DNA of 64,000 nt, taken from the NCBI GenBank assembly GCA_002343185.1, contig DDRT01000016.1:11072-75071 (forward strand). The letters are read 5' to 3'. This document shows positions 30,922 through 52,202 of the stretch, piece after piece. Every line of letters starts with the position of its first letter. The first letter of the stretch is position 1. Source of the stretch: Deltaproteobacteria bacterium UBA2409 (lineage in GTDB: Bacteria; Bdellovibrionota_C; UBA2361; DDRT01). Made by a program: the position numbers and the translations under genes. Below the pieces are notes generated by a model. It ran no database searches. It was given only the letters and a program-made list of their open reading frames with translations, and was not told where the DNA came from.

Positions 30922-32208
30922 ATGAGGATCGGTTCAAATATCTCATCTTTGGTTGCACAAAGACGCCTTAATGAGGCTACAGGAACACTCAGTCAAGTTT
31001 CAGAACGATTATCCTCAGGACTAAGAATCAACAGAGCCAGTGATGATGCAGCAGGGCTTTCAATTGCTGAAGGACTAAATGCCAATAGAAGAGTCGCAAC
31101 AGTAGCGATGCGAAATGTAAGTGATGGACAGTCTCTCCTCTCCATAGCTGATGGAGCATTAACACAGCAAACTTCGGTTATAACCAGAATGCAGGAACTA
31201 GCAGCACAATCAGCAAATGGAACTTTCTCAACATCACAAAGACTTTCACTTGATAAAGAATTTCAGGCTATAAAAGCTGAATTTTTTAGAATATCCCAGA
31301 CCACGATGTTTAATGGGTTATCCCTGCTTGATGGTAATGGGCTATCAAATAGATTCAATATTCAGCTTGGATTAACTGGAAGAGAAGAGCAGCTTGGAGT
31401 CTTGATTGATACAAGGGGAAGCCTAAGGGGTAGAGTTGATCTCACTGTATCAGGGGTAAATGGAGGTACGCAGGCAACTGCTGATTGGATTGCAAGCCTC
31501 TATGGTAGATCTACTCATACTGAAGCTCAGCTATTTCAGAGTGGTTTTGATGGACAGGTTATTATGACTACATCTGTTGATGATATGGGTAGAACCAGGG
31601 ATACAGCGGTATTTGTAAGTAGAAAAGCTAACGGGGTAGCTGGTGAGCAGATCTTCATGAGAGCTTTTGTTCGATCCTTAGATAATCCAACTCTATGGGA
31701 AGGAGAAGTTGACATCGCTGACTACGCAGCATTTTCCGGTGGATTATATTCAGTAAATCCGAACGGAACGGTTGGAGCAAATAATGTTTTAACACTGAGT
31801 GATGGAACGTATGGGGATTTTAGTGTGAATTTTGGAAATCTAGTCTTTTATGATGGAGTGAATGGAACTAATTCTTCTGAGGCAGCATTGCAAGCTTTAG
31901 ATGTAACTAATACAGACAGAAGCAGATATGCACTCGATGAGTTATCCAAACACTTAGCATCAGCTGCTCAGCTTAGAGGAAATATTGGAGCGTATATGCA
32001 ACGACTATCAGTTGCTTTTAATAACCTGTCTACCTCAAGAGAAGCTTTTACTGCTGCGGAATCTAGAATCAGAGATACTGACATTGCTGCCGAGAGTGCA
32101 GAATATCTGAGACTTCAGATACTACAAAGTGCAGCGGTAAGTGTACTAAAGACCGCAAACCTTGTACCGGAACTAGCATTGAAGCTAATAAACACAGATT
32201 TAGTATAG
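30922..32208 (+). CDS. fliC: Flagellin
   Basis: Conserved N-domain (LSSGLRINRASDDAAGLSIAEGL) and C-domain (LQILQSAAVSVLKTANLVPE) around a variable centre. Confidence 0.9.
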   Translation: MRIGSNISSLVAQRRLNEATGTLSQVSERLSSGLRINRASDDAAGLSIAEGLNANRRVATVAMRNVSDGQSLLSIADGALTQQTSVITRMQELAAQSANGTFSTSQRLSLDKEFQAIKAEFFRISQTTMFNGLSLLDGNGLSNRFNIQLGLTGREEQLGVLIDTRGSLRGRVDLTVSGVNGGTQATADWIASLYGRSTHTEAQLFQSGFDGQVIMTTSVDDMGRTRDTAVFVSRKANGVAGEQIFMRAFVRSLDNPTLWEGEVDIADYAAFSGGLYSVNPNGTVGANNVLTLSDGTYGDFSVNFGNLVFYDGVNGTNSSEAALQALDVTNTDRSRYALDELSKHLASAAQLRGNIGAYMQRLSVAFNNLSTSREAFTAAESRIRDTDIAAESAEYLRLQILQSAAVSVLKTANLVPELALKLINTDLV

Positions 32209-34224: not shown

Positions 34225-37200
34225 TTATAATCTAGCCTTCAGCTTCTTACTGGAAAGTGGACTTTCTTTTGAGTGAATTCCTGTAGGTAAATGATAATAT
34301 TGATATGTAACCTCAACTTTAGATCTCTTTCTAGGTCGTTTAATTTCGTAAAATTCTCCCCGAAACTCTACATTTAAAGTCTTCTTCTTTTTCCCTTTTA
34401 CTTTGAGTACTATTTCAACTCTGTTTGTAATATCACTGCCTCTAAATTGCTTGATAATAACCCTGATTTTGTCTCTCCTAGTCTTAATTTTAGCCTTCTC
34501 AGGTGTTGTATCTGGTAAAAGTTCATAATCTCTGGGCTCTCTGCAGCTGGAGTTACCGGTTTCTTCAACGCCACAACCACATAATCCAGGCTCAGACTTT
34601 AAAGGGTCATTAGGACATCGATCTAGGCAGTCTGGAATTAAGTCTCCATCAGAGTCATTGTCAGGTATACCACAGCCACATAGACCAGGTTTTAATTTTA
34701 GCGGGTCATCTAAGCATTCATCTACACACCCCATACACATTCTACTACTGTTTCCTACTCCTGTTTTTGAATGGCCACCCCGCGATTGTTCCCAAGGTTC
34801 TGCTTCACAGCCACAGGATCCCGAATCCCATTTATATAGGTTCATCCGTTGAGATAGACCTAGAATTTTATGAAATCCAGTTCCGTCTCTTATAAGTGCA
34901 AGAGAGAGGCTAGCAGAGCCGGAGTCCATCATTTGTGTACTTATTAATCTGCCTTGATGGTCTAATATAAGCACCTCATTCATTCCATGAGCCAAGGTGC
35001 CATATCTGAAAACAGGAACAGCTATCTCTAAGGTTCTATAGTCATCGTCTAAGTTTGCTAGTAGAGGTTCTCCGACCGTTAGGGGATAATCCAATATTTG
35101 ATACTCAGATAGATCCTCAGCCTCTATGCAAAAAGGAAAGTTCTCCATCGGTAATCCATTATTCTCGTAGACATAGACGCAATTGTTTGCAAAAAAAACA
35201 AGTTCTATAGAACCATCACCATCTAAATCACCTGCTGATATCGTATTGTCGAGTTCGTCATTTGAAGGGTGTGGAATTAAAATAGGAAAGTTGGGCAATT
35301 CTGTACCTGTAGGGCTCAAAGAATGCACCTTAAGAGAACGCTCTGATGATAATTTTTCTAGAAAAAGAATATCGTTAACTCCGCTTCCGTCTATATCGAA
35401 AGCGGTCGGAGAAAAGATTCTGCCCTCGAATCGCTTTGGAAAGCCATGAGCAGTTTCTCCTCTACTATCTATAACCCATAGATCTCCTTTAGTATCTGTC
35501 AGAGATCCAGAACAAGTTCCTCCTCCGATACAAGATCTAGTGGCGATTACGATCTCTTTTCCAAAAGACGGTAGAAGGTCGAGAACCAAAGGGGCTGGAA
35601 TCAGATTTCCTAAGGTGGATCCAAATGGAGGCAAAGGAGGTAGTTCTTTTGGAAAACCAAAAAGTTCGCTTCCATCTGGCCTCATGACATGAAGCCGAAG
35701 TGCGTTAGAAGTAAAGATCATTTCATCTAACCCATCATGATCTATATCAGAGACTGCTATAGAGGAGATCTCTCTATTTTCTACCTCAATTGGGCTACGT
35801 AGGGATGAGCCATCAATATTGAAAATATGGATTCTTCCACAAATATCTCCCGCGACAATCTCTTTAACTCCATCGTTGTTGAAATCAGAAAAGGTAATTC
35901 CTCTGTTAAAATCAGATACAGATAACTCTCGCTCGCAGCTAGGAACTACTTTTGGCCATCCTGGAAGAGGAACACCATCTGAGTTTAAAATCATAATTAG
36001 ACTCCCGTTTGCAAACCCTAACTCATCAACACCGTCATTATTAAGATCGGCAACGGTTGGTTGATTTTTGGCTAAACATGAAAAAGTAGCCCAATAACCC
36101 ACCTCTGACGCTATGCATGGAAGAGAAGTATTTAAAGGAAAATTAGGCATTAATTGGGTGTCTAAATATACTTCAGTGTTGGTTTCGTGAGTTCCAGAGT
36201 TACCTACAACTCTTAGTTTTATGATCCAAAAGCCACTTTTTATCCCTTCTACTTCGAACGGTTTCCATATGCCCAAGACTCCGTTTTCAACCTTAGATGG
36301 TTTATTTGATTCTAAAGTAAAGCAAATCTCAGAGTTTTTAGGACATACAGAAAGATCATAGTGTAGAAAATCAGAACCACTAGCGCTGCCGATTATTCGA
36401 ATTTCCTTTTTTCCACTTAGTGGATACCAACTATTCACATCTTCTCGGTCATAATTTCTGGGAGAGTAAATATTAGTGCCGTCAATAAATAAAATTGCAT
36501 AATCTTCTGAAATGACTTCATTTTCTGAGGAATCTAAACTATATACCTTGAGTCTTAACCAGATGAATGAATCCTCTACGGCGACAGGTAATGAAATTCT
36601 CCCAAGTATCCCATCGTCGACCGCATCTCTACCTTCACTGAGAATTTGCCAGTCCGAATCAAGTTTCATTGCCAACTCATATTTCAGAAATCCATGAGCC
36701 TTTGCTGTTCCTGTAATTGGATATTCGCCTCCTGTGATTCGACCACGAGTCTTGATCTTTGCTAGAGACATATGTTCAGCTGCTCTTGTCGCAGCTTCAG
36801 CATCCATTAATCCAAATCCTTGAGAAAATACGCCACGCCCTAACGACTCAGGAAGTTTTCTAGCAGTCCGTCGCATTAGATCTTTGATCTCGAATGGACT
36901 GAGAAATGGGTTTTTCTGAAGAATCAAAGCAGCTACTCCTGCGACGTGGGGAGATGACATTGAAGTTCCGGAAAAGCCTATTCTTCCCGGAGAGCAGGTC
37001 GATGGATCATTAAGTAAGGAGCTTTTTGGGGCACATACTATTGCCCCAGGAGCAACTAGGTCAGGTTTTAGATATCTCTCATTAGTATCTTCGTAGTTAT
37101 AGCTAGGGCCAATTGAGCTAAAAGGAGTAACCTCATCTTCTGTTGGAGTTTGGTCTCCCCATAAATTTTGACCAGGATAGTTTTGCTTGAATGTAGCACC

Positions 37201-38184
37201 GACAGTTATGGCATTTATTGAAGACCCAGGAGAGGAGATAGAATAGCCGCCAAAATGCCCGGAATTCCCTGCTGCTACAACAGCGACAACTCCTGCAGAG
37301 ACAAGATTGTCCACGGCCTGTGAGAGAATGCTTTCCGATCCTCCAGGACCTCCTAAGCTTAAATTTACAATATCAAGTCTGTCACTTAAACTCCCGTCAC
37401 GGTTTGGGTCGAGAGAGTAGTCAAGACCAGCCAGTATTGAGGATAAATATCCCAGTCCATCATCTCCTAACACCTTAATTGCGTAAAGTGTTGCTTCTGG
37501 AGCTACCCCTGAATACCCTTGCTCAATTCCTGCTGCTATCCCTGCAACGTGAGTTCCATGCCCGTTTTTGTCATCAGGGATTGGATCGTTATAAACAAAG
37601 TCATACCCTCCTCCAAACTTTTGACATCCTTCAAAGGTTGTGCAAGCACCGAAAGCTGGATGTGAATGATCAACTCCTGTATCAATAATACCTATTCTTA
37701 TATTACGACCCTTTATGGGGTTACCGAAGTTGTCATTTAGATTCCAGGCTTGTGCTATCTTCGTGCGTTGAAGAGATTCCTCCAGGGTTATGTGATAAAT
37801 TTCATCTTCAATTATATTTAGACCATCTCTTTTTAACTCTGAAATTTTACTTTCAGTTGTCTCGATAAATAAAGCAACGCTTGCCAGCTTGGTCGAACCT
37901 TTTATTGAACTCTCCCCAACTTTTTCTGATACCTTGGAAGTGAGGTGTTCAATTTCAGAGACTACAGAACGCTGTAAGACGGGTGAATTATTGAAGTTCT
38001 TCACAAGTGGATTCGAGCTCCCCAATATTATATATCTCTTCGATGGTGTTTTGTTAACTTTGATCTGTTGAATCTCAGGGTTCTCTGGATGTCGGGGAGT
38101 ATTGCTGGTTAAGTCAGGGAAGGTCTGGGCGTATAAAAATCCTAAAAACAGATTCTGAACAAGAAAAAACCTAAAATAACTCAT
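34225..38184 (-). CDS. Giant secreted subtilisin-like (S8) serine protease with FG-GAP/VCBS-like repeats and C-terminal TSP3-like Cys-rich repeats
   Basis: Asp triad site GIIDTGVD, His site HGTHVAG and Ser site GTSMSSPHVAG. Repeated DxDxDG and GLCGCG motifs in the C-terminal region. Signal peptide present. Confidence 0.8.
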   Translation of the reverse strand: MSYFRFFLVQNLFLGFLYAQTFPDLTSNTPRHPENPEIQQIKVNKTPSKRYIILGSSNPLVKNFNNSPVLQRSVVSEIEHLTSKVSEKVGESSIKGSTKLASVALFIETTESKISELKRDGLNIIEDEIYHITLEESLQRTKIAQAWNLNDNFGNPIKGRNIRIGIIDTGVDHSHPAFGACTTFEGCQKFGGGYDFVYNDPIPDDKNGHGTHVAGIAAGIEQGYSGVAPEATLYAIKVLGDDGLGYLSSILAGLDYSLDPNRDGSLSDRLDIVNLSLGGPGGSESILSQAVDNLVSAGVVAVVAAGNSGHFGGYSISSPGSSINAITVGATFKQNYPGQNLWGDQTPTEDEVTPFSSIGPSYNYEDTNERYLKPDLVAPGAIVCAPKSSLLNDPSTCSPGRIGFSGTSMSSPHVAGVAALILQKNPFLSPFEIKDLMRRTARKLPESLGRGVFSQGFGLMDAEAATRAAEHMSLAKIKTRGRITGGEYPITGTAKAHGFLKYELAMKLDSDWQILSEGRDAVDDGILGRISLPVAVEDSFIWLRLKVYSLDSSENEVISEDYAILFIDGTNIYSPRNYDREDVNSWYPLSGKKEIRIIGSASGSDFLHYDLSVCPKNSEICFTLESNKPSKVENGVLGIWKPFEVEGIKSGFWIIKLRVVGNSGTHETNTEVYLDTQLMPNFPLNTSLPCIASEVGYWATFSCLAKNQPTVADLNNDGVDELGFANGSLIMILNSDGVPLPGWPKVVPSCERELSVSDFNRGITFSDFNNDGVKEIVAGDICGRIHIFNIDGSSLRSPIEVENREISSIAVSDIDHDGLDEMIFTSNALRLHVMRPDGSELFGFPKELPPLPPFGSTLGNLIPAPLVLDLLPSFGKEIVIATRSCIGGGTCSGSLTDTKGDLWVIDSRGETAHGFPKRFEGRIFSPTAFDIDGSGVNDILFLEKLSSERSLKVHSLSPTGTELPNFPILIPHPSNDELDNTISAGDLDGDGSIELVFFANNCVYVYENNGLPMENFPFCIEAEDLSEYQILDYPLTVGEPLLANLDDDYRTLEIAVPVFRYGTLAHGMNEVLILDHQGRLISTQMMDSGSASLSLALIRDGTGFHKILGLSQRMNLYKWDSGSCGCEAEPWEQSRGGHSKTGVGNSSRMCMGCVDECLDDPLKLKPGLCGCGIPDNDSDGDLIPDCLDRCPNDPLKSEPGLCGCGVEETGNSSCREPRDYELLPDTTPEKAKIKTRRDKIRVIIKQFRGSDITNRVEIVLKVKGKKKKTLNVEFRGEFYEIKRPRKRSKVEVTYQYYHLPTGIHSKESPLSSKKLKARL

Positions 38185-38339: not shown

Positions 38340-39188
38340 ATGAAAGTGCAATCTGAGAAATTTGCTGATGGGGATGGGCTGATTCTTAGAAGTTTTAGTG
38401 AGATAGTCGATCAGAGCATTAGAAACCGAGCTACAAGCCTTGGTTTTCGCTCTGGAGAGTGGCGAGATAGAGTTAGCGATTCAGCTCAGGTTGACCAGAC
38501 AATCTCTGAAATCGAAGGTCTTATTGAAGAAACATCTTTGAATCAAGTTCTAAAGCTGGACGGGTCACTTTCGCAGCACGGGTTAGTCAGACTAATTGAT
38601 ATAGTTTGGGATCGGAGAAGAAGTGGGGTGATGGGAACTTCTGAGGCGATTTTTACTGAGCTGGCCTTAAAACTAGAGAAGCTATTCAAACTAGTAGAGA
38701 AGCCTCCGTTAGAGAAGACCGCGGATATGGAAAAAAACTCCTCTACTAATCCTGACTCAGCGACCGATACACCTCAGTCGATGGTTTTAAAGTTCCAAAA
38801 TTTAATGGATAAGCACGCGAAAAGTGATGTTAAATTTCGAGCCTATGATTTAGTCAGAATTTGTAATGAAGAAGGCGTTGATCCACGATTAGCTTTTCTA
38901 ATGTTCTGGAGGGAGAGTCACTGGGGAACAGCGGGAAGGGCTAAAAGAACCTTTAATCCAGGAAATGTTGGTAATACTGATTCTGGTGCTCATAGATATA
39001 TGGGTCGAGCAGGTGACGATGTTGGTCAAAGATTTTTAGATGGAATAAGAGACTGGTGTAGATTTATGAAGCAGGGATATGAAACTACTCTTGAGGGATT
39101 CATAGAATCTGGAGGTATACGCACTAAGGGAGGAAATATAGGAGCAAGCTACGCAAGAAATAACTATTCAAGAGCATTGCCCCCTTAG
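38340..39188 (+). CDS. Glucosaminidase-domain (FlgJ/Acm-like peptidoglycan hydrolase) protein, paralog A
   Basis: C-terminal FLMFWRESHWGTAG...TFNPGNVGN...ASYARNNYS matches PF01832-type ESGWG / NNxxGI / Y..Y motifs. No signal peptide. Confidence 0.55.
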   Translation: MKVQSEKFADGDGLILRSFSEIVDQSIRNRATSLGFRSGEWRDRVSDSAQVDQTISEIEGLIEETSLNQVLKLDGSLSQHGLVRLIDIVWDRRRSGVMGTSEAIFTELALKLEKLFKLVEKPPLEKTADMEKNSSTNPDSATDTPQSMVLKFQNLMDKHAKSDVKFRAYDLVRICNEEGVDPRLAFLMFWRESHWGTAGRAKRTFNPGNVGNTDSGAHRYMGRAGDDVGQRFLDGIRDWCRFMKQGYETTLEGFIESGGIRTKGGNIGASYARNNYSRALPP

Positions 39189-39281
39189 CAAGAAGGCTGG
39201 GGCTGATGGAATAGCGCACCCCTTACCGAAGCCTCAACCATTGCTAAGTTAATCAGCAGTATGTTCGTGCTTGTTTCCATG

Positions 39282-40379
39282 TTAGAACGATTTAAGAAAC
39301 CTGTGTAACATTTTAGAAATCCCAGGAATTCGTTCTTTTACTACTTTAAGATATTCTACAAGATTAGTTGGTAAATTTCCTTCTCGAGCAACCAATAATT
39401 TATCAATATATATGGCTAGTCTTAACTTTTGCCTTGGAAGTTTTAATAAAGCTTCTAGTAATTTGTAACATTTTTGATCTCCTCGACTTATCAACACTTC
39501 CAACTCTGAAGTTAAAAGGCTAAAGGCTAGCTTTGGACGCTTACTAAAAATCTCAATAGCATTATTCAAGCTCCTAGCATCATAAACTCTAAGTTTTGAA
39601 ACAAGAGCAGATAGTAGGTTCCTAAATCCCTTGCCATTTAAGTCGGTGAATGACAAAAGACTAGGAGTTCCTGAAAAAGAATCACTATCTAAAACATCCG
39701 CTGTAATATTATTGAGAAATACCTCCTGAACTAAATGTTGGTAAATCCCAGAGCCTAATCTTAACTCTAAATCATAAATTCTCATCCAGTGAATAAAATT
39801 TTCAGGAGGAAGTTTTGCAGCAGCAAAAATTGTAGCCTTTATAACTTCATTATTAAATGAGCTTTTCCCACATTTTAGCTCTTCTTCATGAACCCATATG
39901 ACGATATCCCTGGCAACCCTACGTTCTAAAAACTCTTCACTTTGTGCTAGCTCAAACAACATCTTACATCCATCTGTTCTAGTTTGTTTATTATCACTTT
40001 TAAGTGAATTTTTAAGAAAATCTTGAAATTCAGGAGTTAAAGCTGGGTAGTTCAGAACAGTAGCTATACCCTCGAGCCAATCTCTGAGCATTGTTAAGTA
40101 TATTGCACTCTCTTCACTATTAGCTAGTGATTCATTTCTTTTCTCAATTACATAAGGAATAGCTCTTTTCACTAGTTGAGCAGCTTGAATAATTGAAGGA
40201 GCATTTTTGTCATTAGGATCTACTGCTCTAGCAAGTTTTCCAAGACATTCTCTGGCTTCCATGCAATTAGAAAGGAGATCGATACCGGCTCGTAACAGCT
40301 CTGGATCTGTTGGAGAAACTCTTCTTAGGGCAGCTTCAAGATAACTACATGATATGGTTGACCGCTCAGGATTAAACAT
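39282..40379 (-). CDS. Alpha-helical (HEAT/ARM-like) repeat protein, hypothetical
   Basis: 365 aa of amphipathic helical repeats with no TM segment or signal peptide. Confidence 0.4.
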   Translation of the reverse strand: MFNPERSTISCSYLEAALRRVSPTDPELLRAGIDLLSNCMEARECLGKLARAVDPNDKNAPSIIQAAQLVKRAIPYVIEKRNESLANSEESAIYLTMLRDWLEGIATVLNYPALTPEFQDFLKNSLKSDNKQTRTDGCKMLFELAQSEEFLERRVARDIVIWVHEEELKCGKSSFNNEVIKATIFAAAKLPPENFIHWMRIYDLELRLGSGIYQHLVQEVFLNNITADVLDSDSFSGTPSLLSFTDLNGKGFRNLLSALVSKLRVYDARSLNNAIEIFSKRPKLAFSLLTSELEVLISRGDQKCYKLLEALLKLPRQKLRLAIYIDKLLVAREGNLPTNLVEYLKVVKERIPGISKMLHRFLKSF

Positions 40380-40618
40380 ATAATTGATATTAATTTTTAA
40401 TCAAAAGAGTATATATATTTTCTCAAAAAAACTGCTCTATCACGAAAATGTTATTTAGAAGCTGATTTATTCTGAGAATGGACAATTGAACGGCCTTTGG
40501 AAAAATAGGCAACCCAGACACCCAAGCCGCAGACCGAATTTTGGGGGCAAGGGAAAAATCCGGTTTGTAGCTTGTATTTATTCTGAACTAATAGAGAGTC
40601 TATTACATTACAAACTAC

Positions 40619-43087
40619 TTAACCCCTTAGTATTCTGATTCTAGCAGCCTTGCTCTGTCTGTATTCATTATTAGAAAGTCTTACTAGATATCTGATTTTC
40701 CATTTACCAGGTGATAATTTAAACCTGACCGACCGTCTTGAGGTTTCCTTGACTATTTCCGCTGGAGAATTGCCTGACTTCGAAGCAGTCACTGTATAGA
40801 GCGCGTTACTAAACTTTCTCATAGAAACTAAAACCTTGCGTCTTGTGAGAGAGTTTAGGCTAGGTGCAGGAAGAGTCGTAGGAACTGGAGTAGGAGCTAT
40901 TAATAGGAGATCGGAGCTGATTTTCATCAGAAACGCATCTAACATCCCGTTGTGTGACGAATCATAACAACCTGAGGTTGTAGGAAGACCTCCATATGCA
41001 TAACCCGATACAACAATATGGCCTAGCGAATTAATTAAAAGCGAAGTTCCCACTTGCTGATACCCGTTTCCGAACAGCGTGGATGACTTCAATTGAGTTA
41101 AGTCTGAACTGAAGCGACTTATTAATACATCGGCATACTGACCACTATGTTGAGTATCATACGCTCCTTCGCTAGTAGGAAAACCAGTGCTCTGTGTGAA
41201 TCCGGTTATAAAAATTTCTCCAGCGCTAGAAATTTGAAGACCCGTCGCGCTTTCGAGAGGGTAGCCATCACGAGCGGGGCCTCCCAAGAAGGTAGATGAA
41301 AGCAATGAAGAAAGTGAAGGGCTCAGTTTACTAATGACTATATCATAACCTCCGTTATGCGAGTTATCGAACGCTCCCGCAGTTGTTGGGTAGTCACTAG
41401 AAGAGGACGAACCAGCAATAATCACATTATCCGAAACATCTAACTTTAGTGAATCGAGACCGAAATCTTCAGTTCCCAGACCACCAAGGAGGGTAGATGC
41501 ACTCAGAGAAGAAAGATCGCCTGTTAGTATGCTAATAAAGATATCAGAATATCCATTATGAGATGTGTCAAAGGAACCTACTGTGGTTGGAAAATCTGTT
41601 GCAATGGTGGTGCCCCCCACTATAATATTCCCGTTGGAACCTACAACAATTGAATACACATGCGTAGTTGCAGGTGGACCATATGAAGAGATGCTTCCTC
41701 CTAGATACGTTGAGGCAACTAAAGCAGTAAGGTCTGGGTTTAGCTTTGAGATAAAACCACTTGCAGCGCCATTCAGGGAAGAATCATAGGGTGAATTTAT
41801 CATGGGAAGATCAGTACTTGATGTTATTCCAGCTATTACAACATTCCCGGAGGAGTCGAAAGTTAGCGCATGTGCAACATCGCCAAGGGTACCGCCAAAG
41901 TATGTAGAAGCTATTAACGATGATAAATCCGAGCTTAGCTTACTAACAAACGCATCAGACGTGCCATCTAGCGTATTATCGTAGGCTCCAGCAGTTGTTG
42001 GAAAGTCAGGGCTACTGGTGTTCCCTGTTACAACAATTTCTCCAAGCGTATTTGCCTTTATGGCAAATGGTAGAGTGGTTGACGAGCCCCCAAAGAATGT
42101 GGAAGCAACCAAAGATGTCAAGTCAGAATTGAATTTACTGATGAACATATAAGACGATGTTGTGCTGTACGCGCCGACCGTCGTGGGGTAATCTAAACTG
42201 GCTGTTTCCCCTGTAATAAATATGTTATCAGAACTATCTAAGGTCATCGCATAAGGTATGTCATTCATCGATCCTCCAACATAGGTAGAGGCAAGCAGCG
42301 GATCAATTATCAACTCAAGGTCTTTTCTATAATCACCAATCTTGAAAGAGTAGCCACCGGGTTGAATCTGATACTCAGCGACAACATCAACCTTACGGCC
42401 GTCGATTTTTTGATATGCGAGAGGTTTTGTAAAATAAATATCGCCTAGCTTAGTACCTACGACCAGTTCGCCTGACTTATTATCGATAGATAGCTTATCG
42501 GCACCTTGAAAATTTAAAACAATCTTTTCTGGTTCTCCTCCGGGCTTAACAGTAAAGATCTTTTCGACGTTATTGCCGCTTGCGGACAAAGTTAACTCTA
42601 TGTTCTTCCATAGTTCACCAACAGTCACCGATTTAAAAGTTTTGAGATTGTTTTTCCAATTTTCTTTGGGGCCAATAAACGCGCTTACTTTAGTTTCTCC
42701 CTCAGAAATTCCCTTTGGGTCAATTTGATTGTCACAATTTATGAAATTTTCTTCCAGTGCAACCGCTTGATACGAATTTCCTGATTTATTATGCAGATCT
42801 TTGAGTGAACGAATAGAGGGCAGGTTGTAAACCAACGAATCATTAGTGACAAAAATCGTTCCAGCAGAAGTCGTCGCATAATACTTAACGTCTCGGTGCA
42901 TTTGACCCTGGTTTTCTATAAAGGGTATGCGAATATTTGCTATCGTATCCGGTGAAAATTTATTTTTTCTCACAAAATCCGATTTTGTGTTGATAGTGGA
43001 ATCCTCTTTATGACTTTGTGTACTGCAACTTACAACAAATATTGTAACCGAAAAAAATACTACATTGAGTACAAGTCTATTTTTCAT
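40619..43087 (-). CDS. Lipoprotein with many beta-propeller (SBBP-type) repeats
   Basis: Lipobox FVVSC. More than ten repeats of the form SSDLSSLxASTYxGG...D.A.ALT.DSSGN..I.G.T.S.DFPTT, typical of PF06739-like repeats. Confidence 0.6.
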   Translation of the reverse strand: MKNRLVLNVVFFSVTIFVVSCSTQSHKEDSTINTKSDFVRKNKFSPDTIANIRIPFIENQGQMHRDVKYYATTSAGTIFVTNDSLVYNLPSIRSLKDLHNKSGNSYQAVALEENFINCDNQIDPKGISEGETKVSAFIGPKENWKNNLKTFKSVTVGELWKNIELTLSASGNNVEKIFTVKPGGEPEKIVLNFQGADKLSIDNKSGELVVGTKLGDIYFTKPLAYQKIDGRKVDVVAEYQIQPGGYSFKIGDYRKDLELIIDPLLASTYVGGSMNDIPYAMTLDSSDNIFITGETASLDYPTTVGAYSTTSSYMFISKFNSDLTSLVASTFFGGSSTTLPFAIKANTLGEIVVTGNTSSPDFPTTAGAYDNTLDGTSDAFVSKLSSDLSSLIASTYFGGTLGDVAHALTFDSSGNVVIAGITSSTDLPMINSPYDSSLNGAASGFISKLNPDLTALVASTYLGGSISSYGPPATTHVYSIVVGSNGNIIVGGTTIATDFPTTVGSFDTSHNGYSDIFISILTGDLSSLSASTLLGGLGTEDFGLDSLKLDVSDNVIIAGSSSSSDYPTTAGAFDNSHNGGYDIVISKLSPSLSSLLSSTFLGGPARDGYPLESATGLQISSAGEIFITGFTQSTGFPTSEGAYDTQHSGQYADVLISRFSSDLTQLKSSTLFGNGYQQVGTSLLINSLGHIVVSGYAYGGLPTTSGCYDSSHNGMLDAFLMKISSDLLLIAPTPVPTTLPAPSLNSLTRRKVLVSMRKFSNALYTVTASKSGNSPAEIVKETSRRSVRFKLSPGKWKIRYLVRLSNNEYRQSKAARIRILRG

Positions 43088-43533
43088 AATCTTTTCAGCA
43101 CAGTAAGTGCTCCAGACGTTAGATCTGTTACAGAGCCCCAAGTAGCTTCATCACCAAATATTGTTGCTGTTCTGGTTTGTATGTGTCCACGTCTCCAAAT
43201 GGCAACAGCAGCTGAACCGTCGCTGGATATTGCAACCTTAGGTAAGTCAGCATTAGCTCCAGATGCAGTTAAATTAGTAACATCTCCCCAATTTGCGGAA
43301 CCTCCGGAGATTGTTGCGACAGCAGACTGTATTATGAAATGCGAATCTAATTGTATACTCCATACTGCTATTGCCTTTGTTCCGTCTGCTGACATAGAGA
43401 TATGAGGAGAATCAGTTGGGACAGAAAGACCGCTTTCTGAAATTGTAGTTGCAGGAGACCAGGCTACCAAGCCGGAAGTTTGTGCGCTGACCTGGTGCAC
43501 CAATGCTAAAATTATAAAAATAATAGCTCTCAC
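43084..43533 (-). CDS. Small secreted protein, hypothetical
   Basis: Signal peptide MRAIIFIILALVHQVSAQ. ATGA overlap with the downstream lipoprotein gene. Confidence 0.45.
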   Translation of the reverse strand: MRAIIFIILALVHQVSAQTSGLVAWSPATTISESGLSVPTDSPHISMSADGTKAIAVWSIQLDSHFIIQSAVATISGGSANWGDVTNLTASGANADLPKVAISSDGSAAVAIWRRGHIQTRTATIFGDEATWGSVTDLTSGALTVLKRL

Positions 43534-43715
43534 GCATTGGTGGTATCATCTAAGATAAAGTTCGTAAAGCCAAAAATCGTAACTATTTTGTGATATATCA
43601 AAATAGAAACTTAGTTCTGGAGAGTAAAACCCAACTTTAACTTTTTCTCTCGGTGACCGCGTACTATTTGAAATTATTGATTATTTGATAGGTTGGTAAT
43701 CCTAGCAGGGTGGCT

Positions 43716-43906
43716 CTAAATGATGGTGCCATGAACGGAGATAGAATTAATGAGTGGATTAGGATGAGTTTTTACGGAATTATACAGACCTTTTTGATAT
43801 TCAATTAACTGCTCAGGCCAATCAGATCCCCTACAAAAGTTTGTCCTTTGAACCCAGGTCAATCCAGAAGGGGACTGATTCTGAAATAGGCTAAAAGTTT
43901 GATAAA
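43716..43906 (-). pseudogene. Internal fragment homologous to the hydrolase-like gene at 32212..33903
   Basis: Minus-strand translation QNQSPSGLTWVQRTNFCRGSDWPEQLIEYQKGLYNSVKTHPNPLINSISVHGTII* aligns with IPSGLSWIERTRFCRGSDWVQQLIEYSRGLYQGVKSHSNADIRNIPVHG of the 582-aa protein. It has no start codon and is bounded by stops. Confidence 0.7.
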
Positions 43907-44340
43907 TTGAGAGAAGTTAGTCTTTAGAGGTTCGTATGGTGTTTTATTTGGTTTATTTTGGCGATTTTGCCTTTCTGAGCCACCAAATACTGAAGAAAGC
44001 CGAAATTTAGAGGGATCTCTCCCCTAAACCAGAGCAATAGGCACTGAAGTTACTGAGATTAGAGTTTTACAATTGTGCACCAGAGCTTGCATGATGCCTT
44101 GAAACTGCACCTTCAGGGTGGTTCTGAATCTGGTGATTTTCGGTGATAGATTAGCTCCGGAGGTCTTCGACAACGTATGAGGACGCTTCATTCCCATACA
44201 CAGTTTACGTTACAGACTCGCCATTATTGGTTCATTTATACGGCTCAGAAAAGTTAAATCTGACTATATAACGGAATTGTGATGATCAGCCCTGCTAGAT
44301 TACTATATGTCAACTAGTTCGAAAAATGTTCTCGTGATAA

Positions 44341-44688
44341 TCAATATTTTGCGGGCTCTTGAGGTTTAAGCTGCTCACCACTTGATTCAAAACCCCAGTA
44401 AGGATCTTTCAAACATTGCTCAGGTGTTGGGCAGATCAGTTTGTAGGTTATTGGATTCATCGAAATTGGAACAGGTATTGGCCTGCAAATCACTGTAGCG
44501 CAGATAGTATCACCACACTTGATCACACCATGACAAACGGCGATATCTCCTTCCTTGTCTACCCCATAATCTCCGCTCCATTGTAATGGGGAATCGCACC
44601 GACAAGGATCATCAGAACGGTTTGGCAGGGCATGGGTCTGGGGTACAATGAAAAGAGAAATCAGAGTTAAGATTAAAATGTTTTTCAT
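44341..44688 (-). CDS. Small Cys-rich secreted protein
   Basis: Signal peptide plus 9 Cys in a 115-aa ORF. Confidence 0.45.
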   Translation of the reverse strand: MKNILILTLISLFIVPQTHALPNRSDDPCRCDSPLQWSGDYGVDKEGDIAVCHGVIKCGDTICATVICRPIPVPISMNPITYKLICPTPEQCLKDPYWGFESSGEQLKPQEPAKY

Positions 44689-44700
44689 ATTTTCTCCTCA

Positions 44701-44994
44701 CTAATCGGCACAGCGTTTCTTATAGTTTTTGTAGTCTAAGCTACAAGGCGGGGGTGGTTCGTTGTTTAATCCTCCAATCAATGAACAGACCTTCCCATCG
44801 CACATTGCGGTTCCCCAGCATAGCTTCTGATCGTTATCTTTTCCTAACATTACTTCTGGTGGGTTTGGCCAACTATCGCATTGGGGCTCAGAGCTTGGCG
44901 CTGCAAAAGCAGGCCTAACTACGCTTGAATCTTTGTGATTATAGATTAGAAAAAGAAAGATCAATGCCGTCGAGACTAGGGTGATTAATTTCAT
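44701..44994 (-). CDS. Small Cys-rich secreted protein
   Basis: Signal peptide plus 7 Cys in a 97-aa ORF. Tandem with the preceding gene. Confidence 0.45.
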   Translation of the reverse strand: MKLITLVSTALIFLFLIYNHKDSSVVRPAFAAPSSEPQCDSWPNPPEVMLGKDNDQKLCWGTAMCDGKVCSLIGGLNNEPPPPCSLDYKNYKKRCAD

Positions 44995-45158
44995 AAGAAT
45001 CTATCTCCTTAAAGGGAAAGCTAACTTGAATTGGGGGGGGGGTCAATAGAAAAGTTAAGGAGATAACTTCATTTGGTGCATATTTCTCACAAATTTGTAA
45101 TCCCTCAATCTTCATGAAATCAGAACCAAATCTTATCTAAACCCTTGATAAGTTAGGT

Positions 45159-46106
45159 ATGGTGCAGGTGACAGAGAATCAAATCAAGGAATTCAAAGAA
45201 GAATCTTCATTCCGTTCTTTTCCCGAGATCGTAGATCATGGGATTAAAAACCGGGCAACAAACCTTGGTTTTAGATCTGGAGAGTGGCGTGAAAGGATTA
45301 AAGACACAGAAAGTGCCAATAAGTTAGTTCAGGAGATTGCAACTTTAATTAAGGATACTCCATTTCAACATGTACTTAAGCTAGACGGAACGCTCTCACA
45401 GCACGGCTTAGTTCGCCTCATAGACATGATCTGGGATCGAAGAAGAAGCGGTATTGTTGGAAACAATGAAGAGCTTTTTACAGCAATTGCACTGAAAGTT
45501 GAGAAGTTATTTGATTTTGTTGCTGAAGATGCTATTAACTCTGAAAAAGTTTCCAATAATAAATCTCCAGATACTCAATCGGCAGAACCAGAAAAATTCT
45601 CAAGATCTGACATTCAAAAAACTAAACAGAAAGAGACAGAGTCACCTGATCTATCAAATTATGACAAGAAACTAATCTCTATTATGCAACCACTTATGGA
45701 TCGATATACTAAGGGGTCAGCCCCATTTAAGGCAAAAGATCTTGTGGATATATGTAATGAAGAAGGCGTGGACCCTAGACTTGCTTTTTTGATGTTCTGG
45801 AAGGAAAGCCATTGGGGAACAGCAGGAAGGGCGAAGAGAACCTTTAATCCAGGAAATGTTGGTAATACTGATTCTGGTGCTCATAGATATATGGGTCGAG
45901 CAAGTGACAATGCAGGACAAAGATTCCTGGATGGGATAAGAGGCTGGTGTAGATTTATGAAGCAGGGATATGAAACTACTCTTGAGGGATTCATAGAATC
46001 TGGAGGTAAACGCACTAAGGGAGGAAATATAGGAGCAAGTTATGCAAGAAATAACTATTCAAGAGCACTTGCTCCTTTGGCAAGAAAGTTAGGACTAATG
46101 GAGTAG
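45159..46106 (+). CDS. Glucosaminidase-domain (FlgJ/Acm-like peptidoglycan hydrolase) protein, paralog B
   Basis: Same architecture as 38340..39188. The 3' ~230 bp are near-identical at the nucleotide level, including 65-bp and 67-bp perfectly identical blocks. Confidence 0.55.
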   Translation: MVQVTENQIKEFKEESSFRSFPEIVDHGIKNRATNLGFRSGEWRERIKDTESANKLVQEIATLIKDTPFQHVLKLDGTLSQHGLVRLIDMIWDRRRSGIVGNNEELFTAIALKVEKLFDFVAEDAINSEKVSNNKSPDTQSAEPEKFSRSDIQKTKQKETESPDLSNYDKKLISIMQPLMDRYTKGSAPFKAKDLVDICNEEGVDPRLAFLMFWKESHWGTAGRAKRTFNPGNVGNTDSGAHRYMGRASDNAGQRFLDGIRGWCRFMKQGYETTLEGFIESGGKRTKGGNIGASYARNNYSRALAPLARKLGLME

Positions 46107-46320
46107 ATTAGCCATCAGCTGTTATCATCCATAACGCAAGATTATATCCTCAAAAGGCGGGCTTTTGACCTATCTAATGTTTCAAAAACAAGGAAACGTA
46201 AGGTTATAATTATTAGTATTCGCCTTTACTATCAGCAGATTCACCCGTAAATATTCTTTTCGAGTTTTGAACGAGGTATCCAAATGGTTAGAAGTTTTGA
46301 ATAAGTTAATCAATCTAAAG

Positions 46321-47712
46321 TTATAATATTGGATCTATTAATACTATCTCAAATCTGGTGCCGTGTTCTTTTGTGCTTATGACCTTGATCTCCCCACCAT
46401 GAGCCTCAACTATCTTTTTAGTCACTGCTAAGCCGAGTCCACTTCCTGCCTTGTCTTTTTCGCGAGATCTGTCAGCTCGAAAAAACTTCTCAAATATATA
46501 AGGTAAGTCGCTATCTGAAATTCCTACTCCATCATCTTTCACTAGTATAGATACTCGACCATTATTATCTTCAAGGGAAAGCTCTACTGAGCCGCCACTT
46601 GGTGTGTAAATAATAGCATTCTCTACCAGATTCGAGATTGCTCGTTCTAGAAGAGAAGGATCTGCGGTTATAATAAAATTCGAAGAGGGAGGAAGTATAG
46701 TTAGCTGAACATTTTTTTCTTCTGCTTGCACAGAGAACTTTGCCGTTATGTCGGATAAGAGCTCAGCTAATGAAAACTGGGAAAGCTCTAATTTTTCAGC
46801 AATCTCCTCAAGTCTGGCAATCTCAAATAACCCATCTATTAACTTTTGTAAGACACTGCAATTTCGAAGGATGATAGATAAAGTGTCAGAAAGGCTTGAA
46901 TCAACTTTTCCTGATAGGAGTTCCGAGTATCCTTTAATAGCAGCAAGAGGAGTTCTTAGATCATGAGAGATTCCGGCAATTAGCTCTCTTCTTAGCGCAT
47001 CGCGCTCTTTTAGTTTAGAAACAAAACCATTGATTCTATGGGACATCTGAGAGAATGAATGTGTTAGCTCGCTTACCTCGTCACTTGAAGTATCATGCAG
47101 GTCTACTATTTTTTGATGGTGTTCAAAAGTCTTTACTGCATTATTTAGTCGTGTAAGTCTAGAAATTAGAACCTTACTTAGAAGAAAAACAATTACTGCC
47201 GATATTAGAAATGCAATTAAGCTTTGAATAGCAACTTGGCTAATAGTTGTGGAAAGTGATTTTGAGATCCTTTCTTCAATTATGATATATAGATCTCGAT
47301 CTGTATCTACGGAAGACTGAACAGCTGGGAGCTCTTTGGCGTTGGTACGAGGGTCAGTTGCGAATGAAATATCTCCCGATTTTTTTACTATTTTAATTCT
47401 GTTTGACTTTAAGATAGTTTTGTCAATTGAGCTGATTAAGATCTCTCCGTTCTTGTCTGTTAGGTAAGGGGAAAATCTCTTGTTAAGTTTAGAAAATCTT
47501 AGAAAAATCTGATAAATTGCTATCAAGTCTTGATGTTCCTTTACCTGATCGACAAGATCATTGGCTAATGGCGTAGATTCTCTTAGGTCGGCTTCATTTA
47601 ATGCTTGATTTAATGCATTCGTTCCGATCAAAAGTGATAGAAACGTCACTAAAAGAGTTACTAAGGAGAAGTAAACTGTTAGCTTGAATGCTAATGAATG
47701 GGTGAGCCTCAC
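46321..47712 (-). CDS. Sensor histidine kinase (HisKA + HATPase_c)
   Basis: H-box ISHDLRTPL, N-box NLVENAIIYT, G1 DDGVGI and G2 GSGLGLA. Two TM segments. Confidence 0.85.
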   Translation of the reverse strand: MRLTHSLAFKLTVYFSLVTLLVTFLSLLIGTNALNQALNEADLRESTPLANDLVDQVKEHQDLIAIYQIFLRFSKLNKRFSPYLTDKNGEILISSIDKTILKSNRIKIVKKSGDISFATDPRTNAKELPAVQSSVDTDRDLYIIIEERISKSLSTTISQVAIQSLIAFLISAVIVFLLSKVLISRLTRLNNAVKTFEHHQKIVDLHDTSSDEVSELTHSFSQMSHRINGFVSKLKERDALRRELIAGISHDLRTPLAAIKGYSELLSGKVDSSLSDTLSIILRNCSVLQKLIDGLFEIARLEEIAEKLELSQFSLAELLSDITAKFSVQAEEKNVQLTILPPSSNFIITADPSLLERAISNLVENAIIYTPSGGSVELSLEDNNGRVSILVKDDGVGISDSDLPYIFEKFFRADRSREKDKAGSGLGLAVTKKIVEAHGGEIKVISTKEHGTRFEIVLIDPIL

Positions 47713-47744: not shown

Positions 47745-48443
47745 TCAACACACAGCTTCATTGAATTTATAACCTTTTCCCCAAACAGTCATGACATATT
47801 TTGGCTCAGATGGATTATCTTCTACTTTAAGTCTTAATCGATTAATATGAGTATTCACGGTATGTTCATATCCATGAAATTTATATCCCCAGACCTCAGA
47901 CAAAAGCTCTTCTCGGCTAAAAACCTTACCTGGGGATCTAGCCATAAAGGTGAGGAGTTTAAGTTCGATCTGAGTCAGCCCTAAATCCTTGCCGTTCAGG
48001 TATGCCGACATTTTCTCAGCATCAATCGTGAGTGGACCAAGAGACAGCTTTGTTGTGAGGATTTTAGTCTCCTTCTGAGATCGTCTCAAGAGTGCTCGTA
48101 CTCTTGCTGTGAGTTCATTGATTGAGAATGGTTTTGCCAGATAATCATCTGCCCCCGCCTCGAAACCTTCTAGCTTGTCTTCCTGCGTGTTACGTGCAGT
48201 GAGAAATAAAACAGATGAAGATGTTCCAGAAGATCTTATATCTTTGCAGATTGAGAGTCCTTCAGCATCAGGCAACATTCTATCAAGCACTATTACGTCG
48301 AACAGATCTTCATTAAGCTGGTGATGTGCTTCATGTGCAGATTTAGCAACAGAAACATTAAAGCCCTCACTTACCAGGTGTTGTCTGATAAGCTCAGAAA
48401 TATCTTTATCATCTTCAACTACGAGAATTTTGTATGAATTCAT
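47745..48443 (-). CDS. OmpR-family response regulator
   Basis: Receiver domain (ILVVEDD...DVIVLDRMLPD) plus a winged-helix C-terminus (LTQIELKLL...RLR). Confidence 0.85.
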   Translation of the reverse strand: MNSYKILVVEDDKDISELIRQHLVSEGFNVSVAKSAHEAHHQLNEDLFDVIVLDRMLPDAEGLSICKDIRSSGTSSSVLFLTARNTQEDKLEGFEAGADDYLAKPFSINELTARVRALLRRSQKETKILTTKLSLGPLTIDAEKMSAYLNGKDLGLTQIELKLLTFMARSPGKVFSREELLSEVWGYKFHGYEHTVNTHINRLRLKVEDNPSEPKYVMTVWGKGYKFNEAVC

Positions 48444-51147: not shown

Positions 51148-51293
51148 ACTACTAGGTGTAGACAATATCAGGACTTGATACTCAAAAATCAACTGCTTTT
51201 GATATGCTTAAACGGCAATCCTAACATAAATGTTAAATCTTAGCCTTGAAGCAGAGAATACCATTAAGCTGATCATTGGCTTTAAGGATGGTT

Positions 51294-52202
51294 ATGAAAT
51301 ATCTTTTACTTTTGGTTTTAGTATGTAGTGTCTATGCTGATATTGAGGCACTTGAGGCACAGGCAGTAAAACGGAATCTGGTTCTTTGTATGCTTCCTAG
51401 AGATATCTCTGGACAGAAGCAAAGAAGAATTGTTGGTCTAAAGGTTCCTGACAGGTTCTTGAAAAAATCGGGGATTGAAAAATTTAAATGTCCAATTAAA
51501 GGTTCTATAAGAGTTACAACTAAAAACTTCGACCTACTTGGACTGTCTGATGCAGAGCAGAATGCGCTCACTACCATAATTAATAACTATCTTATTACTG
51601 GCTCTCCGGGTGGAATCGGACCTCAAGGACCAAAAGGAGATCGTGGTGAGAGAGGACCGCAGGGAGAGAGAGGAGAAACAGGTGCACGTGGAGAGAAAGG
51701 AGATAGGGGGGAAACTGGCCCAGCAGGTGCAGCAGGGCCACAGGGAGCAACTGGCCCACAGGGGCCGGCAGGACCACAAGGCCCACAGGGAGCCACAGGA
51801 CCACAAGGCCCACAGGGGCCGGCAGGCCCACAGGGAGCCACAGGACCACAAGGCCCACAGGGTATTCAAGGTCCACGTGGTCAAGGTATGAACTTGACGA
51901 CTTGTAGGAGGAGATTATTTCAGGGAACCTATGCCCCGGGTATTGTAGGGTACGAAGGAGGAAACTCAACATGGGCTCAGTGCGTAAGTGGTGAATATCT
52001 GAATAACTATAGTTTTTCAGTTATGTCACAAAATGGACGTGTTGTTCCTGTAGTAACTGATATAGCTATTCATGCTCCGTCTCAAGGAAACTCAAATGCA
52101 TATCCAACTGGAGTTACAGTTAACGGAGAACCTGTTTCGTCCACAAGTCCTAATGCTCAGTGGAAGTATGTAGTAAATGCTTATTGCTGCTCGATTGAGT
52201 AA
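51294..52202 (+). CDS. Secreted collagen-like triple-helix repeat protein with a C-terminal globular domain
   Basis: AAGGA RBS 5 nt before the ATG at 51294. Signal peptide [15 protein letters not shown]. About 31 uninterrupted G-X-Y triplets ([22 protein letters not shown]...). C-terminal ~100-aa domain ending CCSIE. Confidence 0.75.

Follow-up and report, generated by a model that had tools for sequence, protein, structure and literature searches.

Glycoside hydrolase family 73 (GH73) enzymes with varied accessory domains are common, and the characterised members act on polymeric wall beyond the cytoplasmic membrane. LytB of Streptococcus pneumoniae, Auto of Listeria monocytogenes and Ecd09610 of Clostridioides difficile are Sec-exported Gram-positive wall enzymes with wall-binding repeats. 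FlgJ of Salmonella and Escherichia coli (PDB 5dn4/5dn5) is a protein of about 300 amino acids (aa) without a signal peptide, in which a C-terminal GH73 domain follows a flexible linker; in the FlgJ report (PMC4752226), Glu184 is the putative general acid/base, its partner Glu223 lies on a mobile hairpin, and Auto is described as inhibited by an N-terminal helix. The Tge effectors, glycoside hydrolases that act on peptidoglycan, are delivered with no Sec signal, and known type VI secretion system (T6SS) effectors are encoded beside an immunity gene (PMC4832377). At the DNA level, bacterial paralogs are well known to undergo gene conversion, tufA/tufB and the rRNA operons being examples (survey PMC6053082). 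Here we describe a pair of genes, designated A and B, in a 64,000-nucleotide (nt) stretch of DNA from Deltaproteobacteria bacterium UBA2409 (contig DDRT01000016.1; the whole stretch is referred to as the window, and positions are given in its numbering). The predicted products resemble FlgJ in size and layout, and the 3′ parts of the two genes very likely resemble each other because of gene conversion.

Gene A (38340-39188, + strand) and gene B (45159-46106, + strand) are intact open reading frames (ORFs) of 282 and 315 codons whose products are 64% identical over 289 aa (BLASTP, E = 1e-137), in agreement with an earlier note on this DNA that had described them as two paralogs of the same architecture. 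A repeat finder reported a direct repeat of 300 nt with 87% identity at an offset of 6891 (38834-39133 and 45725-46024), and tblastn of the 64-kb window returned the two copies A and B and no third. Judged from their sequences, the two are paralogs that share one architecture, in which a disordered linker joins a helical N-domain to a divergent C-domain of GH73/FlgJ type. The all-helical orphan N-domain is predicted at aa 18-122 of B (45210-45524, from the AlphaFold2 model) and, by alignment to B, at aa 16-120 of A (38385-38699); the linker of B is disordered and indel-rich (aa 130-161, 45546-45641, with a predicted local distance difference test score, pLDDT, <50). The GH73-like C-domain occupies aa 166-306 of B (45654-46076, from the FlgJ sequence match and Foldseek) and, with a conserved preceding helix, aa 152-282 of A (38793-39185, from profile relatives that carry PF01832). 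All of these segments lie on the + strand. In the N-domain, nonsynonymous divergence (dN) between A and B is 0.30 against a saturated synonymous divergence (dS), which points to purifying selection on A, and both copies are intact genes under such selection. We consider it very likely that A and B are two-domain GH73 paralogs, that A is an old duplicate and was later truncated, and that short-tract gene conversion then acted on the pair.

The tract of near identity spans 38946-39176 in A and 45837-46067 in B, both on the + strand, and contains 13 mismatches in 231 nt (94.4% identity). Within the tract, divergence is distributed in a mosaic pattern. Block 1 (38946-39011 in A, with its exact counterpart at 45837-45902 in B) is 66 nt long with 0 mismatches, and block 2 (39053-39176 in A) is 124 nt long with 3 mismatches, comprising exact runs of 65 nt (39053-39117 and 45944-46008), 30 nt (39119-39148) and 24 nt (39153-39176). 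Between the blocks lies an unconverted patch of 41 nt (39012-39052 in A, 45903-45943 in B) with 10 mismatches and 4 amino-acid differences (G/S, D/N, V/A, D/G), a divergence at background level. Outside the tract, nucleotide identity between A and B is 75% in the 112 nt just upstream, 64% in the N-domain and 46% in the linker, which also contains several indels. The earlier note had listed two perfect blocks; that of 65 bp stands, and that of 67 bp is in fact 66 nt, its coordinates having been one base off. Its description of the conversion as recent is to be qualified, since it applies to two short tracts of 66 and 124 nt around a 41-nt patch at background divergence.

Near identity of this extent is far above chance. 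The longest identical runs between A and B are 66 and 65 nt, compared with at most 29 nt in orthologue pairs, and in 2000 shuffles of the A-B mismatch positions the longest run did not exceed 36 nt. For the analysis of synonymous sites, A and B were placed in a codon alignment with the sole orthologue-type relatives in the databases, P0002 (71% identical to B, Logan runs SRR22184561-64) and P0004 (46% identical, SRR18313619). The Nei-Gojobori proportion of synonymous differences (pS) between A and B is 0.73 in the N-domain, 0.77 in the linker and 0.81 in the first 33 codons of the C-domain, and falls to 0.17 in the last 78 codons. Among codons for the same amino acid, 60 of the 106 to the left of position 38946 carry a synonymous difference, as do 7 of the 71 to its right, giving a maximum chi-square of 39.5 at this breakpoint (Fisher p = 8e-11, 0/5000 permutations as high). 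No such break was found between B and P0002 or between B and P0004, and the comparison of A with P0002 gave a weak break elsewhere (136/5000 permutations).

An explanation without conversion would invoke stronger purifying selection on the 3′ end, or an element conserved at the nucleotide level in both copies, and it could appeal to the C-domain being the most conserved protein part across family members. We consider this extremely unlikely. In the same last 78 codons, synonymous sites are near saturation between orthologues (pS 0.64 for B-P0002 and 0.66 for A-P0002, in an orthologue range of 0.62-0.66), indicating that selection on the protein does not fix synonymous sites and that there is no nucleotide-level constraint. 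Moreover, the first 33 codons of the C-domain encode protein that is equally conserved and almost identical in A and B, yet their synonymous sites are saturated. As to a nucleotide element, the tract has no Rfam match, and a promoter and terminator scan of the locus found no excess of either kind of site over shuffled sequence.

The grouping of the four sequences also changes along the gene. Among quartet-informative sites of the N-domain and linker, 30 support (B,P0002), 17 support (A,B) and 7 support (A,P0002), whereas within the tract the corresponding counts are 3, 14 and 1; the tree signal thus switches at the tract boundary, from (B,P0002) outside to (A,B) inside. Old homologous DNA that has diverged lies on either side of the tract, as conversion would predict and a recent partial duplication would not. 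A low-divergence tract bounded by diverged homology, together with phylogenetic incongruence, is the pattern of gene conversion, and the conversion of the 3′ part proposed in the earlier note is in accord with the sharp synonymous break, the position of the tract inside the homology and the incongruent tree signal. In mechanistic terms, non-reciprocal homologous recombination between the direct copies would have overwritten two stretches, of 66 and 124 nt, within the 3′ half of the catalytic domain, while the 41-nt patch and the remainder of the gene would have kept their saturated synonymous divergence. The mosaic may reflect either two separate events or one event with an escaped patch.

The DNA just downstream of A retains a trace of its earlier form. 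Directly after the A stop codon, one frame off, the sequence GCA AGA AGG CTG GGG CTG ATG GAA TAG (39188-39214, + strand) encodes ARRLGLME*, an out-of-frame relic of the ancestral C-terminal tail. The tail is in use as ARKLGLME* in B and as ARRLGLMD* in P0002, and the PLARKLGLME of B is kept in the orthologues P0002 and P0004; by tblastn, residues 302-315 of B are 71% identical to 39170-39211. The relic indicates that the whole gene was duplicated and that A was shortened later. A deletion of 1 nt would have brought the TAG into frame, leaving A without its last nine codons. The relic differs from the B tail by 8 mismatches in 29 nt and is thus diverged like the remaining gene, which indicates that the conversion tract ends inside the homology.

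The duplication itself is probably older than the split of B and P0002. N-domain dN is 0.18 for B-P0002 and 0.30 for both A-B and A-P0002, and dN to the outgroup P0004 is 0.58 for A and 0.64 for B, with no rate excess of A, a pattern that argues for duplication before the B/P0002 split and not for faster evolution of A. B looks like the ancestral-type locus, because it has upstream DNA in common with P0002 and a kinase neighbour in common with P0004: about 85 nt upstream of B are conserved (45078-45158 in the window, 7910-7992 in the P0002 contig L005), with different genes further upstream, and a histidine kinase gene on the opposite strand follows both B and P0004. The conserved upstream stretch includes a perfect palindrome, ACAAATTTGT (45089-45098), and a shared block, CCCTTGATAAGTTA, right before the start codon, with weaker echoes of the element 5′ of A and of P0004, and may be an operator or promoter. 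All four P0002 contigs (L005-L008, Logan SRR22184561-64) stop at one base, 76 nt past the stop codon, which suggests a repeat or strain breakpoint downstream, possibly a second gene copy. On the contig that carries P0004, an apparent tRNA 3′ end (L009 1-30, …GTTCGAGCCTCGTCTTCCGCTCCA) lies about 120 nt upstream of the P0004 start, making this context unlike those of both A and B.

The same intergenic region upstream of B holds a run of ten G (45033-45042), within the 164 nt that separate B (start 45159) from a divergent 97-aa gene (start 44994, - strand). Promoter homopolymer tracts are classic slipped-strand phase-variation switches. This G tract has the same size in each of the four assemblies spanning it.

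The sequences come from metagenome assemblies, and identical blocks could in principle be produced by a collapsed or chimeric repeat, the artefact that the earlier note had itself named as its possible undoing. Over 20.8 kb, the window was found to agree base for base with three contigs from separate NCBI and JGI assemblies, namely GCA_002344365.1 DDTP01000005 (128 kb), JGI 3300006417 (77 kb) and JGI 3300013771 (77 kb); each has the two copies arranged as in the window, and the blocks recur in all three. With 13 differing sites inside the tract and identical blocks (66 nt at most) shorter than a read, repeat collapse is neither needed nor likely, and the blocks lie in frame within intact ORFs. 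The one contig that carries a different combination of alleles, the low-coverage contig L010 (ENA ERZ761604, 2018 nt, coverage 2.2, window 44163-46180), differs from the window solely at 46009, 46040 and 46043, which are all three mismatch sites of block 2, and has the A allele at each, producing a perfect 124-nt block. L010 represents either a strain with a perfect second tract, in which case conversion would be polymorphic and ongoing, or a low-k assembly chimera over the 24-nt identical block. Overall, an assembly artefact is a highly improbable source of the identical blocks. No recombinant or deletion alleles were found by an exact search for the shared 65-mer and a protein-pattern scan of metagenome_contigs, a collection that evidently does not hold these contigs.

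The assignment of the C-domain to GH73 comes from its relatives. A profile search with the C-domain retrieved 63 further proteins, and PF01832 (Glucosaminidase, GH73) was matched at E <= 0.01 in 43 of the 52 aligned sequences (a set that includes A, B and the orthologues), with a best E of 9.8e-13. In an exhaustive search, most of the best matches scanned exceed the PF01832 gathering score of 30.2 bits, the top ones reaching 35-86 bits. Thus the possibility that the C-domain would match no peptidoglycan hydrolase profile was not borne out, since its profile relatives pass PF01832. A profile built from A, B, the orthologues and seven more distant relatives had Salmonella FlgJ (5dn4/5dn5) as its best PDB sequence match, spanning the whole domain, with the ES motif and YATDPNY of FlgJ lining up with the family motifs. 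The residues invariant across 11 sequences include, in B numbering, E216, S217, G220, N230, N233, G235, N236, Y295 and Y300. FlgJ Glu184 corresponds to the invariant Glu of the E-S-x-x-G motif, making Glu192 of A (codon 38913-38915, + strand) and Glu216 of B (codon 45804-45806, + strand) the putative general acid, and the family also has a near-C-terminal Y-A-x-x-x-Y motif, which in B is YARNNY (aa 295-300, + strand) and aligns with YATDPNY. In sum, homology of the C-domain to GH73/FlgJ-type domains appears solid at the profile level, and only at that level. If catalytically competent, A and B would cut the glycan strand of peptidoglycan.

Structural prediction points in the same direction. 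The AlphaFold2 model of B has a mean pLDDT of 75.7, with a low-confidence loop at residues 235-244 that is placed like the mobile hairpin of FlgJ. Foldseek against the PDB put the GH73 enzymes LytB, Auto and Ecd09610 on top (probability up to 0.99, E = 0.35), and the top of its viral list (BFVD) consists of phage glucosaminidases and a tape-measure protein (probability 1.0, E ~0.1). This fold evidence for GH73, resting on a model, is consistent but weak.

In contrast to the C-domain, the N-domain has no recognisable relatives. Residues 21-120 of B were modelled at pLDDT 81-95 in the full-length model and with a mean of 77.7 when modelled alone, but no meaningful fold match was found in the PDB (best E = 2.6, probability <=0.13). 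Pfam returned a weak TAF10 match in B (E = 0.14) and no family, PHROG gave no match, a PDB sequence search gave a chance-level match only, and the exhaustive search yielded no relatives of the N-domain. The rod-binding domain of FlgJ, PF10135, is absent from the Pfam matches at E <= 1 in the N-terminal half, and alignment of the family profiles to E. coli FlgJ by hhalign was confined to the catalytic motif, with no rod-binding likeness. The N-terminus is polar and modelled with low confidence. The maximum 12-residue Kyte-Doolittle mean over the first ~50 residues is 0.84 in A and 0.11 in B, and no 19-residue window in either protein exceeds 0.82. This hydropathy scan detected no signal peptide or membrane segment in A or B, and because the ORFs are maximal and hydropathy is low throughout, the absence of a signal peptide that had been remarked on before holds for both. 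A and B would leave the cytoplasm by a Sec-independent route.

Several points weigh against the reading of A and B as GH73 paralogs joined by gene conversion. As single sequences, B and A score 20.3 bits (E = 9.6e-4) and 13.2 bits (E = 0.15) against PF01832, both below the gathering score, and in both the alignment is confined to profile positions 3-54 of 123, within the first half; of the FlgJ/Acm-like assignment in the earlier note, the part that stands is therefore homology to GH73 at the profile level. FlgJ is matched by the family profile at a marginal E of 0.04, and the structural matches of the C-domain have poor E-values of 0.1-0.35. Enzyme activity is predicted from sequence, and any export route is conjectural. 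The triplet sites in the tract are divided 9 versus 6, so that donor and recipient cannot be told apart. Finally, the three matching contigs clearly represent one strain, possibly from related samples, and attest to reproducible assembly and not to population sampling, and the coverage of L010 is 2.2x, leaving room for a low-k chimera. Even so, we continue to regard duplication, truncation of A and short-tract conversion as very likely.

Compared with the described systems, A and B share with FlgJ the overall length, the lack of a signal peptide and the C-terminal GH73 domain after a flexible linker, as well as the E-S-x-x-G general-acid motif and the YA(T)xxxY motif; the low-pLDDT loop after the catalytic Glu may correspond to the mobile hairpin of FlgJ (PMC4752226). 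Unlike FlgJ, they have an N-domain that is a folded helical bundle and a much shorter hairpin region, they form a paralog pair, and they are not in a flagellar operon. LytB, Auto and Ecd09610 are the best structural matches of the C-domain, and a conserved helix directly before the domain across the wider family (B residues 167-184) is reminiscent of Auto; nevertheless, sequence identity to these three enzymes is 14-17%, and A and B have neither wall-binding repeats nor Sec export. Phage virion and endolysin GH73 domains with the NPGNVGNTDSGA motif share the most conserved motif and the first half of the domain, but in these phage proteins the match extends over about half of the domain and the N-terminal parts are unrelated, and A and B have no prophage context. 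Tge2 (PDB 4kt3) resembles A and B in combining a lysozyme-like/GH73-like fold with the lack of a Sec signal, but as a fold match it is weak (E = 4.6, probability 0.13), no conserved immunity gene is adjacent and no T6SS genes are in view. As a case of concerted evolution, the pair shows the familiar features of paralogs that are closer to each other than to orthologues over a short internal tract, and of direct repeats a few kb apart. Unlike tufA/tufB and the rRNA operons, A and B have been converted over only ~190 nt in two patches, and the synonymous saturation of the remainder indicates sporadic conversion and not long-lasting homogenisation.

How A and B act is a separate matter, and our preferred guess among the export routes, offered tentatively, is a FlgJ-like one, in which the flagellar type III apparatus would export the proteins without a signal peptide and they would open the wall for the flagellar rod. 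Among PDB sequences FlgJ matches best, the size (282-315 aa) and the order of a non-catalytic N part, linker and C-terminal GH73 domain are as in FlgJ, and the N-terminus is polar and of low model confidence, without a Sec signal. A weak hint comes from flagellin genes, one lying 6 kb upstream of A and another 2.5 kb from two distant relatives, P0075 and P0072. This route has difficulty, however, with the N-domain, which is unlike the rod-binding domain by both Pfam and hhalign, and with the position of the genes outside a flagellar rod operon, among an S8 peptidase, proteins of no known family and a two-component system, with the flagellin as the sole flagellar gene in the vicinity. No flagellar genes adjoin P0002 or P0004, and the family is far too rare for a core flagellar part. 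A rather unlikely alternative is that these are cytoplasmic enzymes that process imported muropeptides in the manner of NagZ, which would explain why export signals are missing family-wide: all seven distant relatives, of 320-375 aa, have neither signal peptide nor membrane segments, and their genomic contexts are housekeeping or metabolic. No ampG, nagZ or anmK was seen nearby, and the site of action of GH73 enzymes outside the membrane argues against it, an argument that is purely inferential.

An origin as a domesticated phage lysin, of virion-associated or endolysin type and released through lysis or a holin-like partner, we regard as unlikely. It would account for the NPGNVGN-type half-domain found on 25 viral contigs, in one of them as the C-terminus of a 1416-aa virion-type protein, and for the phage glucosaminidases and tape-measure protein at the top of the BFVD fold matches, and to our knowledge endolysins lack signal peptides. 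Neither A nor B has a PHROG match, nor do the intervening genes scanned (all but that of an 822-aa lipoprotein), and no prophage genes were recognised among the window ORFs scanned; moreover, these are chromosomal genes under purifying selection and conserved in three lineages. We attach very little probability to the contact-dependent or type VI effectors of the Tge2 kind that were also considered, with two small Cys-rich neighbours as immunity factors. Tge2 is among the fold matches, Tge effectors likewise lack a Sec signal (PMC4832377), and two small secreted Cys-rich proteins adjoin B. The Cys-rich genes are, however, absent at the P0002 and P0004 loci, the neighbour of A is a cytoplasmic-type protein, and no VgrG, Hcp or PAAR was recognised among the window ORFs scanned. 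No small periplasmic neighbour is conserved across the A, B, P0002 and P0004 loci, and this reading was marked down because T6SS effectors adjoin an immunity gene.

The family to which A and B belong is rare. It comprises five clusters among 5.8 billion proteins, and in the exhaustive search of 1.84 billion 50%-identity representatives only one reached E < 1e-30; a scan of GTDB genomes with B found nothing. Seven distant relatives (P0069, P0072, P0075, P0080, P0082, P0087 and P0184) each have a long non-catalytic N part and the conserved helix before the catalytic domain. An adjacent two-gene arrangement was present in three of the five distant-relative loci inspected (L116 10001-11985, L119 6001-8308 and JGI 3300059473). 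In these pairs, P0069 is accompanied by a 321-aa neighbour that keeps the IESHMG...NFGNDDAG motifs, P0075 by P0072, and P0080 (JGI 3300059473) by a Glucosaminidase-positive 208-aa neighbour, whereas P0087 and P0082 are single genes with no partner alongside. Divergence within pairs ranges from 44% overall identity (P0075 and P0072) to likeness solely around the catalytic motif, and no conversion was seen in the P0075/P0072 tandem pair, where the longest identical run is 12 nt. Beyond the GH73 genes, and flagellin in one locus, no neighbours are common to the window and the wider-family loci. The flagellin of that locus (L119 1665-3551) is a 628-aa 'giant' flagellin with FG-GAP repeats between Flagellin_N and Flagellin_C, 2.5 kb from the P0075/P0072 pair; the window flagellin (428 aa, 30922-32208, 6 kb upstream of A) shares 53% identity with the N-terminal 150 residues of this giant protein. 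From these observations we formulate the idea, which we think doubtful, that A and B are the most compact members of an undescribed, Sec-independent, paired class of two-domain GH73 wall hydrolases, in which the N-domain would be a new module for export, targeting or auto-inhibition and conversion would keep the catalytic halves of the partners compatible. In such a class, the N-domain could serve, for example, flagellar type III export or wall remodelling in predation, in an Oligoflexia-like bacterium.

Five genes lie between A and B, all on the opposite strand, and their descriptions in the earlier note held up unevenly. The first encodes a 365-aa helical protein without a signal peptide (39282-40379, - strand); it has no family match, and Pfam lends no support to its description as HEAT-like. 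It is followed by an 822-aa beta-propeller lipoprotein (40619-43087, - strand) with DUF7948 and SBBP domains (Pfam E = 1.3e-51 and 3.5e-10) and the lipobox VVSC, and by a 149-aa secreted repeat protein (43084-43533, - strand), the gene of which overlaps the start of the lipoprotein gene by 4 nt, so that the two probably form an operon. The remaining two genes encode small Cys-rich proteins of 115 aa (44341-44688, - strand) and 97 aa (44701-44994, - strand), each with a hydrophobic signal-like N-terminus, which have no family matches in Pfam or PHROG and a weak mutual likeness (26% identity over 46 aa, E = 0.02). The first description thus stands for the lipoprotein, the secreted protein of 149 aa and both Cys-rich mini-proteins. 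A hydrolase pseudogene had been proposed within 43534-44340, a gap of 807 nt without a credible gene; it was rejected, because the six-frame translation is filled with stops and there is no tblastn match to A or B and no Pfam or Rfam match.

Nor does the intervening DNA, called a cassette in the earlier note, look mobile: G+C is even across the locus at 38-42% and uniform over the intervening 6 kb, in which no integrase or insertion sequence was found, and no flanking repeats were found besides A and B. The proposed deletion or amplification driven by these repeats finds evidence neither for nor against, as a single arrangement was observed, identical over 20.8 kb. Since the pairs in relatives are adjacent, the simplest reading is an older pair of neighbouring genes that was later separated by insertion or rearrangement of the intervening genes.

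On the far side of B, a histidine kinase gene (46321-47712, - strand), convergent with B and corresponding to the kinase neighbour of P0004, stands beside its two-component partner, an OmpR-type response regulator gene (47745-48443, - strand); among the unannotated genes downstream of this two-component system, 51276-52202 has a Pfam Collagen match. Immediately upstream of A is the gene of a secreted S8 subtilase of 1319 aa (34225-38184, - strand), with FG-GAP matches that are faint and below threshold; its C-terminal region is rich in Cys and carries repeats of the motif CGCG…D-x-D-x-D-G. Further away, a 315-aa ORF (21479-22426, - strand) resembles a REP-associated tyrosine transposase in its N-terminal 139 residues, at 54.8 bits against a cut-off of 80 bits. 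As to lineage, a scan with the glutamate dehydrogenase (GDH) gave at most 64% identity, for the most part to unrelated phyla, and the one hint, towards Oligoflexia, is the gene order GDH-RlmB-ScpA that the window has in common with 'MAG: Oligoflexia bacterium SSF28' (59, 39 and 51% identity), along with the order GDH-RlmB in common with 'MAG: bacterium 6_bin.32'.

Gene conversion itself is an ordinary process, and the locus does not represent a new system. Its value lies in the clean, quantifiable record of short-tract conversion in a protein-coding paralog pair of an uncultured bacterium, with both boundaries, an unconverted patch and a possible polymorphic variant, making the A/B tract a useful teaching or benchmark example. 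The residual interest is in the proteins, a rare subfamily that combines a GH73 domain missed by Pfam with an orphan N-domain, no export signal and recurrent pairing. If a new export route or cooperating pairs proved true, these genes would add to what is known of how Gram-negative bacteria move wall hydrolases across the inner membrane.

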